39,643 nucleotides of DNA from a phage, in sequence record PZ386960.1, one strand, 5' to 3'. The notes under the pieces were generated by a model. That model worked only from the letters and a program-made list of their open reading frames with translations. It was not told the DNA's origin and searched no databases. The position numbers and the translations under genes were made by a program. Every line of letters starts with the position of its first letter. Within the stretch, counting starts at the first letter, position 1. Below are positions 1 to 39,643 of this stretch, piece by piece.

Positions 1-1761
1 ATGGCACAATCCCAAGAAGCTAAGAACGCGCTAATCATTGCGCAACTTAAGGGTGACTTCGTGGCCTTCCTGTTCGTCTTATGGAAGGCTCTGAACTTAC
101 CTAAACCAACCAAGTGTCAGATTGATATGGCACGCACACTCGCTAACGGCGACCACAAGAAGTTTATCCTTCAGGCGTTCCGTGGTATCGGCAAGTCCTT
201 TATCACCTGTGCGTTCGTCGTGTGGGTCTTATGGCGCGACCCTCAACTTAAGGTTCTCATCGTGTCTGCCTCTAAGGAACGTGCGGATGCTAACTCCATC
301 TTCATCAAGAACATCATTGACCTGCTGCCGTTCCTTGCTGAGTTGAAACCTCGACCGGGACAGCGTGACTCCGTGATTAGCTTTGACGTAGGCTTGGCGA
401 AACCCGACCACTCACCTTCTGTGAAGTCTGTAGGTATTACTGGTCAGTTGACTGGTAGCCGTGCTGACATCATTATCGCAGATGACGTTGAGGTTCCCGG
501 TAATAGCTCTACTAGCTCCGCTCGTGAGAAGCTGTGGACATTGGTTACTGAGTTTGCTGCGTTGCTTAAGCCTCTTCCTACTAGCCGTGTTATCTACCTT
601 GGGACACCCCAAACCGAGATGACACTCTACAAGGAACTGGAAGACAACAAAGGGTACTCTACGGTAATCTGGCCTGCACAGTATCCACGCAACGACGCTG
701 AGGCTCTCTACTATGGCGACCGCTTGGCTCCTATGCTGAAGGCTGAGTACGATGAAGGCTTTGAGTTACTACGTGGTCAACCTACTGACCCTGTTCGATT
801 CGATATGGATGACCTCCGTGAACGTGAACTCGAATATGGTAAAGCTGGTTATACGTTACAGTTCATGCTCAACCCTAACCTGTCCGATTCTGAGAAGTAC
901 CCGCTGAGGCTCCGTGATGCCATTGTGTGCGCAGTGGACACTGAACGTGCCCCATTGTCCTACCAGTGGTTGCCGAACCGTCAGAACCGCAATGAGGAAC
1001 TTCCTAACGTGGGTCTGAAGGGTGACGACATTCACAGCTTCCATGTGTGTTCCTCTAAGACCGCTGAGTACCAGCAAAAGATTCTCGTCATTGACCCATC
1101 TGGTCGTGGTAAGGATGAAACGGGTTACGCAGTCCTCTACACCCTGAACGGCTACATCTACTTGATGGAAGTCGGTGGGTTCCGTGGTGGCTACGATGAC
1201 CCTACCCTAGAGAAGCTCGCTAAGAAGGCCAAGCAGTGGAAGGTACAGACGGTCGTACACGAGAGTAACTTCGGTGATGGTATGTTCGGTAAGGTATTCT
1301 CTCCGGTTCTCCTGAAGCACCACAAGTGTGCCTTAGAAGAGATTCGTGCTCGTGGCATGAAGGAGATGCGTATCTGCGATACTATCGAACCGTTGATGGG
1401 TGCACACCGCCTTATCATCCGTGACGAAGTAATCCGTGAGGACTACCAGACCGCTCGTGACCTCGATGGGAAACATGATGTTCGCTACAGTGCGTTCTAT
1501 CAGATGACCCGTATGACTCGTGAGAAGGGCGCTGTGGCACATGATGACCGACTTGATGCTATCGCATTGGGTATCGAGTTCCTTCGTGAAGGGATGCAGG
1601 TGGACTCTAAGGTAGGCGAAGAAGCCATGACCCTTGAGTTCCTTGAACACCACATGGAGAAACCTATCGTCGGTGGTGACATGGCTCGTGAGTTGGTGTC
1701 TGGAGGTGTGGACATCTACTATGAGGACGATGGCGATGGAGAGTGCTTCATTGAGTGGTAA
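1..1761 (+). CDS. gp19: Terminase large subunit (DNA maturase B)
   Basis: 586-aa ORF, same length as T7 gp19 and similar throughout as recalled ([26 protein letters not shown], GIGKS P-loop-like motif). The window 3' end supplies AAGGAG upstream if the sequence is circularised. Confidence 0.95.
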
Positions 1762-1895
1762 TTAGATAAATATGCAGGAAAGGTGCATAGGTAATCACAC
1801 AAGGTGCTCCCAAAGGCCTTGTGGTTACTTTGTGTACATAGTGCTGTAACTGTATGTTTCTATTGGGGTTATAGAGGAGTTCACCTGTGGATAAT

Positions 1896-1918
1896 TAATA
1901 CGACTCACTATTGGGAAG
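1896..1918 (+). promoter_or_regulatory. Phage RNAP promoter (phiOR-like, downstream of gene 19)
   Basis: TAATACGACTCACTATT-GGGAAG; matches the T7 promoter at -17 to -2 with T at -1. Confidence 0.85.
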
Positions 1919-2073
1919 GGCCCCTAAGACAACTTAAAGACACTTAAAGATTGCATATGCAAAGTGCATACTTAGTGACTACTCTTAGAGACCCTTACAG
2001 TGTGGGATGATAGTAATTGTAATTACATCCCTACTAACAGTGTAACCATCAAGTATAACAAGGAGGACGCTCT

Positions 2074-2229
2074 ATGCGCTTACTATCCGTGCTCAAGACA
2101 CTGGCAACGCATCGAGCGACTTACAAATTTCTCGCTGTACTTGCTGCTTCCATTGGTCTCGCATCTAGTGCTGAACACATCGGTGAACTGGAGACTCTGC
2201 TTTGTTCTCTACTCACTTGTGTTTCTTAG
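2074..2229 (+). CDS. gp19.5: Gene 19.5-like small protein (51 aa)
   Basis: AGGAGG 8 nt upstream of ATG; translation MRLLSVLKTLATHRATYKFLAVLAASIGLASSAEHIGELETLLCSLLTCVS resembles T7 gp19.5 as recalled. Different frame from the listed 2000..2248 ORF. Confidence 0.7.
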   Translation: MRLLSVLKTLATHRATYKFLAVLAASIGLASSAEHIGELETLLCSLLTCVS

Positions 2230-2319
2230 ACTGCTCATTGGCGCTTAGTGCGCTCTTAGTGATTATGGTCGATATTCATCTTCCCTATAATCACTGTAAG
2301 AAGTCAACTCTAAGAGTAA

Positions 2320-2740
2320 CCCTTATGTAACCTCTATGGTCTACAGGGTCTCTTAGGGTCTCTCACGCAGTCTCACCTTATGATAGAGCCTGTATGGTTA
2401 ACCTTATGAGTCCTTGATGTACCCTTTAAGAATCCTACAGAAAAATCTGAGTGAGTATCTCATAGTTCATAAACACCGAGTTCCCCCCCTATGGCCTCCT
2501 TCAGTTCCACCCAAAGAGTGCCACCCCTAGGGTAACTTTATGTTTACTTAATGTCAATCCTTATGTGTGACATTGGGATGACTTAGGGTTAACCACTAGA
2601 TATGGTGCTTAGTGTGACCTTATGACCACTATATGTGGTCCTCTCTGTGTCCCTATCTGTAAGTGACCTTATGACCTCTTAGAGTCATCACCTTATGTCA
2701 TCACCTTATGTCAGACCAGCGACCACTATCCTTATGTTAA
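2320..2740. repeat. Array of at least 9 dispersed CCTTATG heptamers flanking and inside the terminal-repeat region
   Basis: CCTTATG seen near 2322, 2375, 2402, 2549, 2628, 2666, 2691, 2704, 2730; analogous to the CCTAAAG repeats around the T7 terminal repeat. Confidence 0.6.
2457..2670. repeat. Direct terminal repeat (single collapsed copy) with genome left end near 2457
   Basis: TCTCATAGTTCATAAACACCGAGTTCCCCCCCTATGGCC at 2457 resembles the T3/T7 left terminus; CTCTCTGTGTCCCTATCTGT at about 2641-2660 resembles the end of the T7 terminal repeat. Boundaries approximate. Confidence 0.5.
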
Positions 2741-2903
2741 CCTTCAGTCGGTGCCTTCAGTTTATCAGTGACCAGTAGGCTTAGTCACAAAGGAGATTCA
2801 CTATCTTACTCTGTTTAGCAGTCTCTGAGTAATGAGAGAGAGACAAGTAGAATTGACTGAGTGCTTATAGTGCCTTAAAGGCGACTAAGAGTCAATCCCT
2901 GAT

Positions 2904-2926
2904 TAATGCGACTCACTAATGGGAAG
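2904..2926 (+). promoter_or_regulatory. Phage RNAP promoter (phiOL-like)
   Basis: TAATGCGACTCACTAAT-GGGAAG. Confidence 0.75.
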
Positions 2927-2999
2927 TGTCTAATTATAATCCCTTCCTTATAGGCTAACTTAAAGACTACTTAAAGATAACTTAAAGTCTAACTAAGGG

Positions 3000-3028
3000 T
3001 TGACTCTAAGAAACAGCTATGTTCTAAT
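3000..3028 (+). promoter_or_regulatory. Host sigma70 early promoter (A1-like)
   Basis: TTGACT, 17-nt spacer, TCTAAT; preceded by ACTTAAAG repeats as upstream of T7 A1. Confidence 0.55.
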
Positions 3029-3135
3029 GGCTACCAGTTGAGAGACACAACGCTAACAACTACCAGACAAGACCTAGAGTTATCTGGTAAGGCTGAAGGG
3101 TCTCAAGTAGTCATCAACCAGACATACGAAAGTGG

Positions 3136-3164
3136 TTGACTCAACGAAAGCAATAACGTAGTAT
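3136..3164 (+). promoter_or_regulatory. Host sigma70 early promoter (A2-like)
   Basis: TTGACT, 17-nt spacer, TAGTAT. Confidence 0.5.
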
Positions 3165-3231
3165 AGCAGTCGTCAACAACTGGTCGCCCTCTGAAACAAC
3201 ATGAGGTGTCACGGTGAGAAACAAAAAGTAG

Positions 3232-3261
3232 TTGACAAGTAGTAGCGATAAGATGTAAGAT
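3232..3261 (+). promoter_or_regulatory. Host sigma70 early promoter (A3-like)
   Basis: TTGACA, 18-nt spacer, TAAGAT. Confidence 0.55.
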
Positions 3262-3446
3262 GTACGACATAACGTTCTCGTGAAGTCCCACACTGAAAGG
3301 GACTCGGTGCTAACAAACCTGCACTTAAAGCTCTTTAACAATTTGGATAATAAGCACTCTTGAGATGACGACAACAGCGATTAACTCAAGGTGACTCGAA
3401 AGAGAAGCCTTTATGATAATCACTGCAACCACATAAGGTAATCATC

Positions 3447-3902
3447 ATGATTCACACTAAAGAGCAAGCTAACGTTTTCTATGTACTGGTAAGCGCATTC
3501 CGTTCTAACCTGCACCACTTGGATAACCTTAGTCGTCATCGTCGCTTAGTTAACAGCTTACGCAATGCACCTCTGGAATACGGTAGCGTTGAGTCTACAG
3601 ACTTAACTGGCTGTTATCATGAGGCTGGCATGGAGTCACCCTCTGAAGAGCAAACCATTCGAGTACGCTGCACGACTAAAGCTCAAGCTATAAGTGTCGC
3701 ACGGTTGGCTTGTAACGACTATGAGCAAGACTGTGTACTGGTCTATAAGTCACAGACTCACAACGCTGCACTAATCTTTGCTGGTGGCTTGGACGGTTGG
3801 AAGACTGAGCGTATCGGGTCGTTCCAGATGGTCGCACCTGAAGTTGAACTGACAGGCAACTACACGGTCGATGAGTTCGGACGTGGCTGGAAGGTAATCT
3901 AA
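3447..3902 (+). CDS. gp0.3: S-adenosylmethionine-cleaving anti-restriction protein (T3-type SAMase / SAM lyase)
   Basis: 151 aa; MIHTKEQANVFYVLVSAFRSNL...GSVESTDLTGCY...CVLVYKSQTH...IDEFGRGW matches T3 0.3 as recalled; not Ocr-like. Confidence 0.9.
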   Translation: MIHTKEQANVFYVLVSAFRSNLHHLDNLSRHRRLVNSLRNAPLEYGSVESTDLTGCYHEAGMESPSEEQTIRVRCTTKAQAISVARLACNDYEQDCVLVYKSQTHNAALIFAGGLDGWKTERIGSFQMVAPEVELTGNYTVDEFGRGWKVI

Positions 3903-5439: not shown

Positions 5440-8088
5440 ATGAACGTAATCAACGCACCAAAGAATGACTTCTCTGACATCGCTAACGCAATCCAGCCGT
5501 ACAACATTCTGGCTGACCATTACGGTGCACATCTGGCGGCTACGCAGTTACAGTTAGAACACGAAGCGCACACTGAGGGCGAGAAGCGTTTCCTTAAGGC
5601 AATGGAGCGTCAAATCAAAGCTGGTGAGTTCGGTGATAACGCAGTGGCTAAACCGCTCCTGTCATCCCTCGCACCGAAGTTCATCGAAGCGTGGAACACT
5701 TGGTTCACTGAAGTGGAAGCGAAGCGTGGCAAGCGTCCAGTGGCCTACAATCTGGTACAGAAGGTTGCACCTGAAGCTGCTGCATTCATCACACTGAAGG
5801 TCACACTGGCTTGCTTGACCAAAGAGGAATACACGAACCTTCAATCGGTCGCCACTAAGATTGGTCGCAGTATTGAGGATGAACTGCGTTTTGGTCGCAT
5901 CCGTGACGAAGAAGCGAAGCACTTTAAGAACCATGTACAGGAGGCACTGAACAAGCGCGTTGGTATCGTCTACAAGAAAGCATTCATGCAAGCCGTAGAG
6001 GGCAAGATGCTTGATGCTGGTCAACTGCAAACCAAGTGGACCACATGGACACCTGAAGAATCAATTCACGTTGGTGTGCGCATGTTGGAACTGCTCATTG
6101 GTTCTACTGGTCTCGTTGAGTTACACCGCCCGTTCGCTGGTAACGTTGAGAAGGATGGCGAGTACATCCAGTTAACCGAGCAATATGTTGACCTGCTGTC
6201 TAAACGTGCTGGTGCACTGGCTGCAATCGCTCCGATGTATCAACCTTGCGTGGTCCCTCCGAAGCCGTGGACTTCTCCGGTTGGTGGTGGCTATTGGGCT
6301 GCTGGTCGCAAGCCTCTCTCTCTGGTTCGCACTGGTAGCAAGAAGGGACTGGAACGTTACAACGATGTGTACATGCCTGAAGTTTACAAGGCGGTGAACA
6401 TCGCACAGAATACTCCTTGGAAGATTAACAAGAAGGTTCTGGCAGTGGTCAACGAGATTGTGAACTGGAAGCATTGCCCGGTTGAAGATATACCCGCTCT
6501 GGAACGTGGGGAACTCCCGGTCAAACCTGATGACATCGACACCAACGAGGCATCGCTCAAAGCGTGGAAGAAAGCGGCCTCCGCAATCTACCGCAAAGAG
6601 AAGGCACGAGTGTCACGCCGCATGAGCATGGAGTTCATGTTAGGACAAGCCAACAAGTTCGCGCAGTTCAAGGCTATCTGGTTCCCGATGAACATGGACT
6701 GGCGCGGTCGTGTGTACGCTGTGCCGATGTTTAACCCGCAAGGCAACGACATGACCAAAGGCTTGCTGACGCTCGCTAAAGGTAAACCAATCGGTGTCGA
6801 TGGGTACTACTGGCTGAAGATTCACGGTGCTAACACTGCTGGTGTGGACAAGGTGGACTTTGCAGAACGCATCAAGTTCATTGATGACAACCACGAGAAC
6901 ATCATGAGCGTTGCGGCTGACCCGATTGCTAACACTTGGTGGGCTGAACAAGACTCTCCGTTCTGCTTCCTCGCGTTCTGCTTTGAGTATGCGGGAGTCC
7001 AGCACCACGGGATGAACTACAACTGCTCTCTACCTCTGGCGTTCGATGGCTCTTGCTCCGGTATTCAGCACTTCTCCGCGATGCTCCGCGATGAGGTCGG
7101 TGGTCGTGCTGTTAACCTGCTACCAAGTAAGGAAGTACAGGACATCTACCGCATTGTTGCCGAACGTGTGAACGAGATGCTCCGCGAAGCGGTAATCAAC
7201 GGCACTGATAACGAAGTGGAAACCGTGACCAATAAAGACACCGGAGAAATCACTGAGAAGCTCAAGCTGGGAACGAAAGAGTTAGCTGGTCAGTGGCTGG
7301 CCTACGGTGTGACTCGCAAGGTCACTAAGCGTTCGGTCATGACGTTGGCTTACGGTTCCAAAGAGTACGGCTTCCGTGACCAAGTTCTTGAGGACACCAT
7401 TCAGCCAGCTATCGACGATGGCAAGGGCTTGATGTTCACTCAACCGAACCAAGCGGCTGGCTACATGGCTAAACTGATTTGGGAATCGGTAACGGTCACA
7501 GTTGTCGCAGCGGTTGAAGCGATGAACTGGTTGAAGTCTGCTGCTAAACTTCTGGCTGCTGAAGTCAAGGACAAGAAGACTAAAGAAGTCCTCCGCAAGC
7601 GTTGCGCAGTACATTGGGTTACTCCTGATGGCTTCCCGGTCTGGCAGGAATACAAGAAGCCAGTACAGACCCGCTTGAACCTGATGTTCTTAGGCCAGAT
7701 TCGTCTACAGCCTACCGTGAACACCAACAAGGATAGCGGTATTGATGCTCGTAAACAGGAGTCAGGCATCGCACCTAACTTTGTCCACTCAATGGATGGA
7801 AGCCACCTGAGAATGACTGTAGTGCGCTCCAATGAGGTCTACGGTGTGGAATCCTTCGCACTGATTCACGACTCCTTTGGCACTATCCCGGCTGATGCTG
7901 GCAACCTGTTTAAAGCAGTGCGTGAAACGATGGTCAACACTTACGAAGAGAACGATGTACTTGCAGACTTCTATGAGCAATTTGCTGACCAGTTGCACGA
8001 ATCACAGCTTGACAAGATGCCTGAGATGCCAGCTAAAGGTTCTCTGGACCTGCAAGAAATCCTTAAGTCAGACTTTGCGTTTGCCTAA
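5440..8088 (+). CDS. gp1: Single-subunit DNA-dependent RNA polymerase
   Basis: 882 aa (T7 RNAP 883); near-colinear with T7 RNAP, including the specificity loop QPTVNTNKDSGIDARKQ and the C-terminal FAFA. Confidence 0.98.
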   Translation: MNVINAPKNDFSDIANAIQPYNILADHYGAHLAATQLQLEHEAHTEGEKRFLKAMERQIKAGEFGDNAVAKPLLSSLAPKFIEAWNTWFTEVEAKRGKRPVAYNLVQKVAPEAAAFITLKVTLACLTKEEYTNLQSVATKIGRSIEDELRFGRIRDEEAKHFKNHVQEALNKRVGIVYKKAFMQAVEGKMLDAGQLQTKWTTWTPEESIHVGVRMLELLIGSTGLVELHRPFAGNVEKDGEYIQLTEQYVDLLSKRAGALAAIAPMYQPCVVPPKPWTSPVGGGYWAAGRKPLSLVRTGSKKGLERYNDVYMPEVYKAVNIAQNTPWKINKKVLAVVNEIVNWKHCPVEDIPALERGELPVKPDDIDTNEASLKAWKKAASAIYRKEKARVSRRMSMEFMLGQANKFAQFKAIWFPMNMDWRGRVYAVPMFNPQGNDMTKGLLTLAKGKPIGVDGYYWLKIHGANTAGVDKVDFAERIKFIDDNHENIMSVAADPIANTWWAEQDSPFCFLAFCFEYAGVQHHGMNYNCSLPLAFDGSCSGIQHFSAMLRDEVGGRAVNLLPSKEVQDIYRIVAERVNEMLREAVINGTDNEVETVTNKDTGEITEKLKLGTKELAGQWLAYGVTRKVTKRSVMTLAYGSKEYGFRDQVLEDTIQPAIDDGKGLMFTQPNQAAGYMAKLIWESVTVTVVAAVEAMNWLKSAAKLLAAEVKDKKTKEVLRKRCAVHWVTPDGFPVWQEYKKPVQTRLNLMFLGQIRLQPTVNTNKDSGIDARKQESGIAPNFVHSMDGSHLRMTVVRSNEVYGVESFALIHDSFGTIPADAGNLFKAVRETMVNTYEENDVLADFYEQFADQLHESQLDKMPEMPAKGSLDLQEILKSDFAFA

Positions 8089-39201: not shown

Positions 39202-39643
39202 ATGCTCAAGAATTTAAAGAGCTACGCCATAGTTGTGGCCTTTGCCTTGGGGATAACCCTTGCGTACAACCACGGCTACGACAAAGCTAACACCAAATGG
39301 GAACAGGAGGTACACAATGAGTACGTTAAGAAAGTTGAGGCGACTGCGGATAAACAAGCTGCTATCGACAAAATCTCACAGGAATACCAAGAAGACCTTG
39401 CGGCGATGGAAGGCAGCACTGATAGGGTCATTAATGATTTGCGTAACGATGGTAAGCGGCTGCGTGTCAAACTATCAGCCACCTCACGAGAACTCCAAGC
39501 TAACGGTGGATGCCTCGTTGATGGTAGAGCCGAACTTGACGAAGAGTTTAGTAAGCGTCTTATCGGAGTAACACAAAGAGGGGATGCGTGGATTAGAGCA
39601 CTCCAAGGTACAATCAGGGAAATGCAACATAAGGAGAAACATA
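39202..39643 (+). CDS. gp18.5: i-spanin (Rz-like), 3' end runs off the window
   Basis: GGAGGG SD; N-terminal TM helix; KWEQEVHNEYVKKVEA...QEYQEDLAAMEGSTDRVINDLR matches T7 gp18.5. No stop before the window end; the frame would terminate a few codons into position 1 if circularised. Confidence 0.85.
   Translation, partial: MLKNLKSYAIVVAFALGITLAYNHGYDKANTKWEQEVHNEYVKKVEATADKQAAIDKISQEYQEDLAAMEGSTDRVINDLRNDGKRLRVKLSATSRELQANGGCLVDGRAELDEEFSKRLIGVTQRGDAWIRALQGTIREMQHKEKH
39317..39571 (+). CDS. gp18.7: o-spanin (Rz1-like lipoprotein) embedded in gene 18.5 in the +1 frame
   Basis: 84 aa; AGGAGG 6 nt upstream; MSTLRKLRRLR...WKAALIGSLMICVTMVSGC (lipobox Cys)...SLMVEPNLT resembles T7 gp18.7. Confidence 0.8.
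   Translation: MSTLRKLRRLRINKLLSTKSHRNTKKTLRRWKAALIGSLMICVTMVSGCVSNYQPPHENSKLTVDASLMVEPNLTKSLVSVLSE

Follow-up and report, generated by a model that had tools for sequence, protein, structure and literature searches.

The window, the whole stretch of 39,643 nt that was analyzed (PZ386960.1), is a single genome unit of a Berlinvirus (Studiervirinae, Autographiviridae, T7 group). Its best whole-genome matches were Berlinvirus genomes, with 91–94% nucleotide identity over 85–96% of the first 25 kb of the window, and the taxonomy of the matching records was Berlinvirus. Sequence matches to the first 25 kb of the window and to its junction region included no identical record. Gene content and order were T7-like, with a single-subunit RNA polymerase, a terminase, and gene 19.5 as the last gene. 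An 882-aa ORF (5440..8088) matched annotated RNA polymerase. The features on both sides of the segment 2230–2760 are collected in Table 1.

Table 1. Features in and around the predicted genome joint, in window coordinates.
Feature	Position	Strand	Remarks
Large terminase subunit gene (gene 19)	1..1761	+	586-aa ORF, collinear with annotated Kvp1 gene 19
Phage RNA polymerase promoter phiOR, TAATACGACTCACTATTGGGAAG	1896..1918	+	Directed toward the junction; 25-nt repeat 92% identical to 2902-2926
Gene 19.5 (51 aa), last gene before the right end	2074..2229	+	Position and length as 19.5 in Kvp1, BA14 and FE44
Inverted repeat AGTGATTAT / ATAATCACT, perfect 9 bp, 20-nt spacer	2258..2295	.	Conserved; 163-200 bp left of the terminal repeat
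Left heptamer group CCTTATG	2321..2408 (copies 2321, 2376, 2402)	+	Right-end side of the genome
Predicted direct terminal repeat, single collapsed copy, 197 bp	2458..2654	+	Alignment to BA14, FE44, Kvp1, T3 and T7
ATCTGTA, counterpart of the T7 concatemer-junction class II pause/termination signal	2655..2661	+	6/7 bases of ATCTGTT
Right heptamer group CCTTATG	2667..2736 (copies 2667, 2691, 2704, 2730)	+	Left-end side of the genome
Phage RNA polymerase promoter phiOL, TAATGCGACTCACTAATGGGAAG	2904..2926	+	BA14 and T3 have an annotated phiOL at the corresponding site
Host-type early promoter candidates, TTGACT...TAGTAT (3136-3164) and TTGACA...TAAGAT (3232-3261)	3136..3261	+	Consensus scan

The window opens at position 1 with the ATG of the large terminase gene. 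Its final 1600 bases were joined to its first 500 bases, and the product was aligned to Kvp1. The join gave an unbroken 977-bp alignment with 93.4% identity, running from gene 18.5 into gene 19. We looked for overlap or duplication between the two window ends and found none. Because the join is collinear with Kvp1, the start falls on an ATG, and the ends do not overlap, the window represents one genome unit in circularly permuted form, cut open artificially at the start codon of the terminase. Positions 1 and 39643 are ends only because the record was re-started at this gene. A second copy of the 197-bp repeat was searched for elsewhere in the window and was not found. The wrap alignment and the single repeat copy bear out the earlier note, which had described the assembly as circularly permuted with one copy of the terminal repeat.

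Between gene 19.5 and the terminal repeat, the DNA is non-coding and has many short repeats. The inverted repeat adjoins gene 19.5 and was present in 11 distinct Berlinvirus sequences. Its single-stranded DNA fold had a z score of -3.3. A form with both arms changed (AGTGATAAT and ATTATCACT) was represented by four distinct sequence variants, seen in six loci; the carriers were FE44, ETEP21B, a PYPS50-like contig, and one more. No one-sided arm change was found among the 11 distinct Berlinvirus sequences, and the two-arm change may be a single evolutionary event. T7 (39568–39608) and T3 have an imperfect 19-nt inverted repeat at the equivalent place, which is unrelated in sequence to that of the window.

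In the same region, BA14 and FE44 have annotated ORFs of 105 aa (locus L002, 503–820) and 110 aa (locus L003, 503–835), labeled "unknown product" or "hypothetical protein". They start inside gene 19.5, run through the left heptamer group, and end in the terminal repeat. In the window, the sole ORF of at least 40 aa starting in that region is 2202..2330, with 42 aa. Since the equivalent region of the window has only this short ORF, the 105-aa and 110-aa ORFs are probably not genes.

The heptamer CCTTATG was found 15 times in the window, counting both strands, whereas shuffled sequences had a mean of 3.6 and a maximum of 10. Nine of the 12 plus-strand copies fall within 2321–2736, a span of 416 bp. 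In 300 dinucleotide-preserving shuffles, the maximum per 420-bp span was 2, and random placement of 12 sites gave at least nine in 420 bp in 0 of 200,000 trials, indicating that the clustering is not due to chance. The nine copies are all on the plus strand: three are left of the repeat, two are inside it (2559 and 2618), and four are right of it, with spacings of 24, 13, and 26 bp in the right group. The earlier note had placed nine CCTTATG heptamers around the region; the count stands, but two of the copies lie inside the repeat and do not flank it. Copies 2376 and 2402, as well as 2618 and 2730, are kept in Kvp1, BA14, and FE44, and the copy at 2321 is kept in Kvp1 and BA14.

The left group is the counterpart of the short-repeat array that lies left of the junction in T7. 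No CCTAAAG was found in 2230–2800 of the window, whereas the rebuilt joints of T7 and T3 contain 13 and 9 CCTAAAG copies, respectively, both inside and around the repeat. The proposal of the earlier note that CCTTATG takes the place of the T7 heptamer CCTAAAG therefore holds, and the CCTTATG heptamers are the Berlinvirus version of the CCTAAAG arrays that bracket the T7 and T3 repeats.

To compare lineages, viral contigs were scanned for the boundary motif TGTGTCCCTATCTGT, and 115 sequences including the window were analyzed. The comparison kept the 36 of these 115 sequences that had a CCTNNNG heptamer at least four times; the other TGTGTCCCTATCTGT matches were left out. T7-like lineages each had their own oriented CCT-NNN-G heptamer (CCTGAGG, CCTTATG, CCTAATG, CCTTAGG, or CCTAAAG). 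Spacing right of the repeat was mostly 12–13 or 24–26 bp across lineages. In the CCTTATG lineage, the mean number of CCTNNNG was 13.7 on the same strand versus 2.0 on the opposite strand. Copy number in the right array varied among relatives: FE44 has a run of repeated units of about 26 bp, and ETEP21B has a 13-bp array with the unit CACCTAGAGTCAC, whose heptamer is CCTAGAG and not CCTTATG.

Immediately right of the repeat, T-ATCTGTA is located at 2654–2661. ATCTGT is invariant in the window, BA14, Kvp1, T3, and T7, and the equivalent bases of the BA14 record (193–200) are annotated as "concatemeric junction". The class II signal of the phage RNA polymerase has seven conserved base pairs, ATCTGTT, with A, C, or T before them, and the T7 concatemer junction is a natural class II pause/termination signal of this polymerase (PMC11617373). 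In the window, the final base is A instead of T. This final A was found in all seven CCTTATG-lineage sequences (six contigs and the window) and in 1 of 29 loci in other lineages. By its counterpart in T7, ATCTGTA is a putative pause site for the Berlinvirus polymerase.

Upstream, the site equivalent to phiOR carries a phiOR annotation in BA14 and a promoter annotation in Kvp1, FE44, and ETEP21B. A scan between phiOR and the junction found no terminator-like site. Both phage promoters are followed by (A)CTTAAAG units spaced 11 bp apart, two after phiOR (1932–1952) and three after phiOL (2956–2996). T7 also has CTTAAAG-like units after phiOL. A sigma-70 scan of 1760–3460 gave 4 matches versus 3.9 in shuffles, and host promoters are annotated in the corresponding left-end part of BA14, Kvp1, and T3. 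As the scan matches were no higher than in shuffles, support for the early promoter candidates comes from homology to the annotated ones.

We know of no function for the heptamer arrays in any T7-like phage, and to our knowledge they have been unexplained since the T7 sequence was published. A literature search on CCTAAAG, or on CCTTATG together with the terminal repeat, turned up only unrelated papers. The arrays may be nonfunctional, having arisen by slippage during replication or by unequal exchange in a non-coding region that is prone to recombination and in which a loose CCT-NNN-G is kept. The central triplet of the heptamer varies by lineage, and copy number and unit vary between close relatives, as in the FE44 and ETEP21B arrays; this fluidity indicates that slippage shapes the arrays. 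We consider a complete lack of function rather unlikely, because the strict same-strand orientation, the four copies individually kept in Kvp1, BA14, and FE44, and the recurrence of the 12–13 and 24–26 bp spacing in lineages with other heptamers suggest selection on an oriented, phased array and argue for some function. What this function may be is more speculative. The heptamers might be binding sites for a co-evolving lineage-specific protein, for instance the small subunit of terminase or some other factor in packaging or replication, or ATCTGTA might reflect a shifted pause specificity of the Berlinvirus polymerase; we give this idea little credence. If it were true, the heptamer-binding protein or the shifted specificity would offer a handle on array function.

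The boundaries of the repeat were then located by alignment. TCTCATAGTTCATAAACACCGAGTTCCCCCCCTATGG begins at 2458 and agrees over its first 10 bases with the physical left end of both T3 (TCTCATAGTT) and T7 (TCTCACAGTG). CTCTCTGTGTCCCTATCTGT sits at 2641–2660; at the inner repeat boundary, T7 reads CTCTCTGTGTCCCT/ATCTGT and T3 reads CTCTATGTGTCCCT/ATCTGT, the slash marking the boundary. The left-end motif TCTCAYAGT and the right-boundary motif CTCTNTGTGTCCCT/ATCTGT are kept across Berlinvirus, T3, and T7; these genera show no conservation in the middle of the repeat. The segment between the two motifs runs from TCTCATAG to GTGTCCCT. Small hairpins within the repeat (e.g., ACCAC-TATAT-GTGGT, 2625–2639) were dismissed, as they were not kept in the alignment with BA14, FE44, and Kvp1.

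The concatemer joints of BA14 (NC_011040), FE44 (NC_022744), and Kvp1 (NC_011534) were rebuilt from the right end including the repeat and the left end after the repeat. Window 2200–2900 was collinear with all three rebuilt joints, and the three phages are orthologous and collinear with the window over the whole stretch between gene 19.5 and the left-end promoters, repeat included. They have the same boundary motifs, CCTTATG heptamers, and ATCTGTA after the repeat. The annotated terminal repeats in their linear records are 194 bp (BA14), 193 bp (FE44), and 194 bp (Kvp1), compared with 197 bp in the window, and the two end copies are identical within each record. BA14 and FE44 repeats, which also run from TCTCATAG to GTGTCCCT, map onto window 2458..2654. 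Identity over the repeat to relatives was 86–93% (86–90% for Kvp1 and FE44). The differences are small: the window has 12 extra bases at about 2363–2374, shared with Kvp1 and lacking in BA14 and FE44; small indels, such as a C7 run in the window versus C5–C6 in these relatives; and a different number of heptamers right of the repeat. The records of the three phages write the repeat at both ends, whereas in the window it is collapsed and internal.

Other related records also begin or end at these positions. Records of JSS1, pO103, FE44, and BA14 start at the equivalent of 2458, and those of Kvp1 and vB_CECAV_058 start at the equivalent of 2459. The records of Kvp1, BA14, FE44, LPST144, PcCB251, LPST153, PYPS50, and BSP161 end at most three bases from the equivalent of 2653–2655. 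In all, about 10 distinct related phages have a record that begins or ends no more than one or two bases from the equivalents of 2458 and 2654 (more accessions when RefSeq duplicates are counted). Kvp1 has fixed ends with short direct repeats, and its termini were verified on phage DNA.

We infer from these alignments that the physical left end of the phage would be at 2458 and the right end at 2654. Since the 197-bp segment occurs once in the window, the virion genome is predicted to be 39,643 + 197 = 39,840 bp, compared with 39,816 bp for BA14 and 39,860 bp for FE44. The placement of these ends rests on homology. An exact search of viral contigs with the first 30 bases of the repeat matched only Kvp1 and BP12A-like contigs, indicating that the phage of the window with its physical ends is absent from the contigs searched.

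These results agree well with the earlier note. It had pointed to a sequence at 2457 that resembles the T3/T7 left terminus, and this likeness was seen in the first 10 bases, with the start shifted to 2458. Its second landmark, a sequence at about 2641 resembling the end of the T7 repeat, was recovered at 2641–2660. It had put the ends near 2457 and 2670; the left one is off by one base, and the right one moves 16 bp leftward to 2654. The estimate of a real genome roughly 200 bp longer fits the missing 197-bp copy predicted from the repeats of relatives. Alignment to the T3 and T7 termini, one of the checks it had proposed, gave both boundary motifs in common among the window, T3, and T7. The observation was confirmed, and the interpretation was essentially right, with small coordinate corrections.

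Segment 2230–2760 is thus very probably the head-to-tail joint of a Berlinvirus genome, whose linear virion DNA would run from 2458 around to 2654 with the 197-bp repeat at both ends, 39,840 bp in total. The joint form is what would be expected in replicating concatemers, or in any assembly in which the two terminal copies have been merged.

For the phage of the window, a mechanism can be carried over by analogy from T7 and T3. The virion DNA would start with 5'-TCTCATAG at 2458 and end with ...GTGTCCCT-3' at 2654, and concatemers would form as genomes join via the repeat, leaving a single repeat at each joint. The phage RNA polymerase, moving rightward from late promoters such as phiOR, would pause at the ATCTGT after the repeat. 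Terminase (gp18/gp19) and the prohead would be engaged at the paused joint, and the joint would be cut at both repeat boundaries, 2458 and 2654. DNA synthesis would duplicate the repeat, so that each neighboring genome gets a copy and carries the repeat at both ends. Cutting of the T7 and T3 joints with duplication of the repeat was reportedly described by Chung, Nardone and Hinkle in 1990 and by Fujisawa and Morita in 1997; the mechanism also draws on the work of Dunn and Studier in 1983. A passage of PMC3276506, which cites Zhang and Studier 2004, states that the phage RNA polymerase at the T7 junction interacts with gp18 and gp19, starting maturation and packaging.

T7 and T3 have the same order of elements as the window: phiOR, 19.5, inverted repeat, heptamers, repeat, ATCTGT, heptamers, phiOL, and host promoters. 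T7 shares with the window the left end TCTCAYAGT, the right boundary CTCTCTGTGTCCCT/ATCTGT, and heptamers about 13 bp apart right of the repeat. It differs in having CCTAAAG instead of CCTTATG, ATCTGTT instead of ATCTGTA, a repeat of 160 bp instead of 197 bp with a middle that is not alignable, and an unrelated inverted repeat left of the junction. In T3, the first 12 bases of the repeat are identical to those of the window (TCTCATAGTTCA), both have a poly-C run with ATAG/TATGG after it, and the right boundary is TGTGTCCCT/ATCTGT. T3 also differs in CCTAAAG and ATCTGTT, and its repeat is 231 bp, 34 bp longer than that of the window. The locus shows the ordinary anatomy known from the T7 group and adds a further case to an architecture that is already well described. 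Only the lineage-specific heptamer, the one-base variant of the pause motif, and the inverted repeat changed on both arms are mildly interesting.

The junction could be right with repeat boundaries that differ from 2458 and 2654, for example, with a repeat reaching into the right array at about 2670–2730, in line with the 2670 of the earlier note and with the ETEP21B annotation. T7-group phages do differ in repeat length (T7, 160 bp; T3, 231 bp), and ETEP21B annotates a 145-bp repeat, corresponding to about window 2588 onward into the array right of the canonical repeat. However, the internal position at which the ETEP21B repeat starts is not conserved, its end falls within the 13-bp tandem array, and the right end of this phage still holds the full canonical block from TCTCATAG to CCCT. 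About 10 distinct related phages, one of them verified on DNA, place their ends at TCTCATAG and CCCT/ATCTGT, and T3 and T7 end at the same motifs. A displaced repeat is therefore very improbable. That the genome is truly circular, or headful-packaged with permuted ends, so that the likeness to T7 termini is merely inherited sequence, would fit a window that is a closed unit without duplicated ends, but is scarcely credible, because every characterized member of the group, the Berlinvirus Kvp1 among them, has short direct repeats at fixed ends, the pause signal is kept across three genera together with the two boundary motifs, and the window starts exactly on a start codon, which points to a deliberate re-start and not to a biological end.

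The annotated 145-bp "terminal repeat" of ETEP21B (Escherichia phage, OR979722.1; locus L004, 904–1048, and locus L133, 1–145) is probably an assembly overlap and not a physical repeat. It was dismissed as a guide to the ends on account of its internal start, its end in a tandem array, and the intact canonical repeat of this phage.

The result is of use mainly for annotation. With the joint at 2458..2654 as the preferred reading, the record would best be re-oriented to start at 2458 and to carry a second copy of 2458..2654 at its end, giving 39,840 bp. ORFs called across 2230–2900 should not be trusted. Correct ends matter for engineering and rebooting T7-like phages and for comparing packaging signals.

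Two further observations concern the repeat. In Kvp1 (NC_011534.1; locus L005, 1–194, and locus L001, 759–952), the annotated repeat (CTCATAG...GTGTCCC) lacks one base at each end relative to the form in BA14, FE44, T3, and T7 (TCTCATAG...GTGTCCCT), and the flanking bases at its right end permit the longer form. Near the left end of the repeat, the window has a C7 homopolymer (2484–2490); the relatives have C5 (BA14, FE44, and T7), C6 (Kvp1), or C8 (T3 and ETEP21B), and this run may be especially prone to length variation or to sequencing error.
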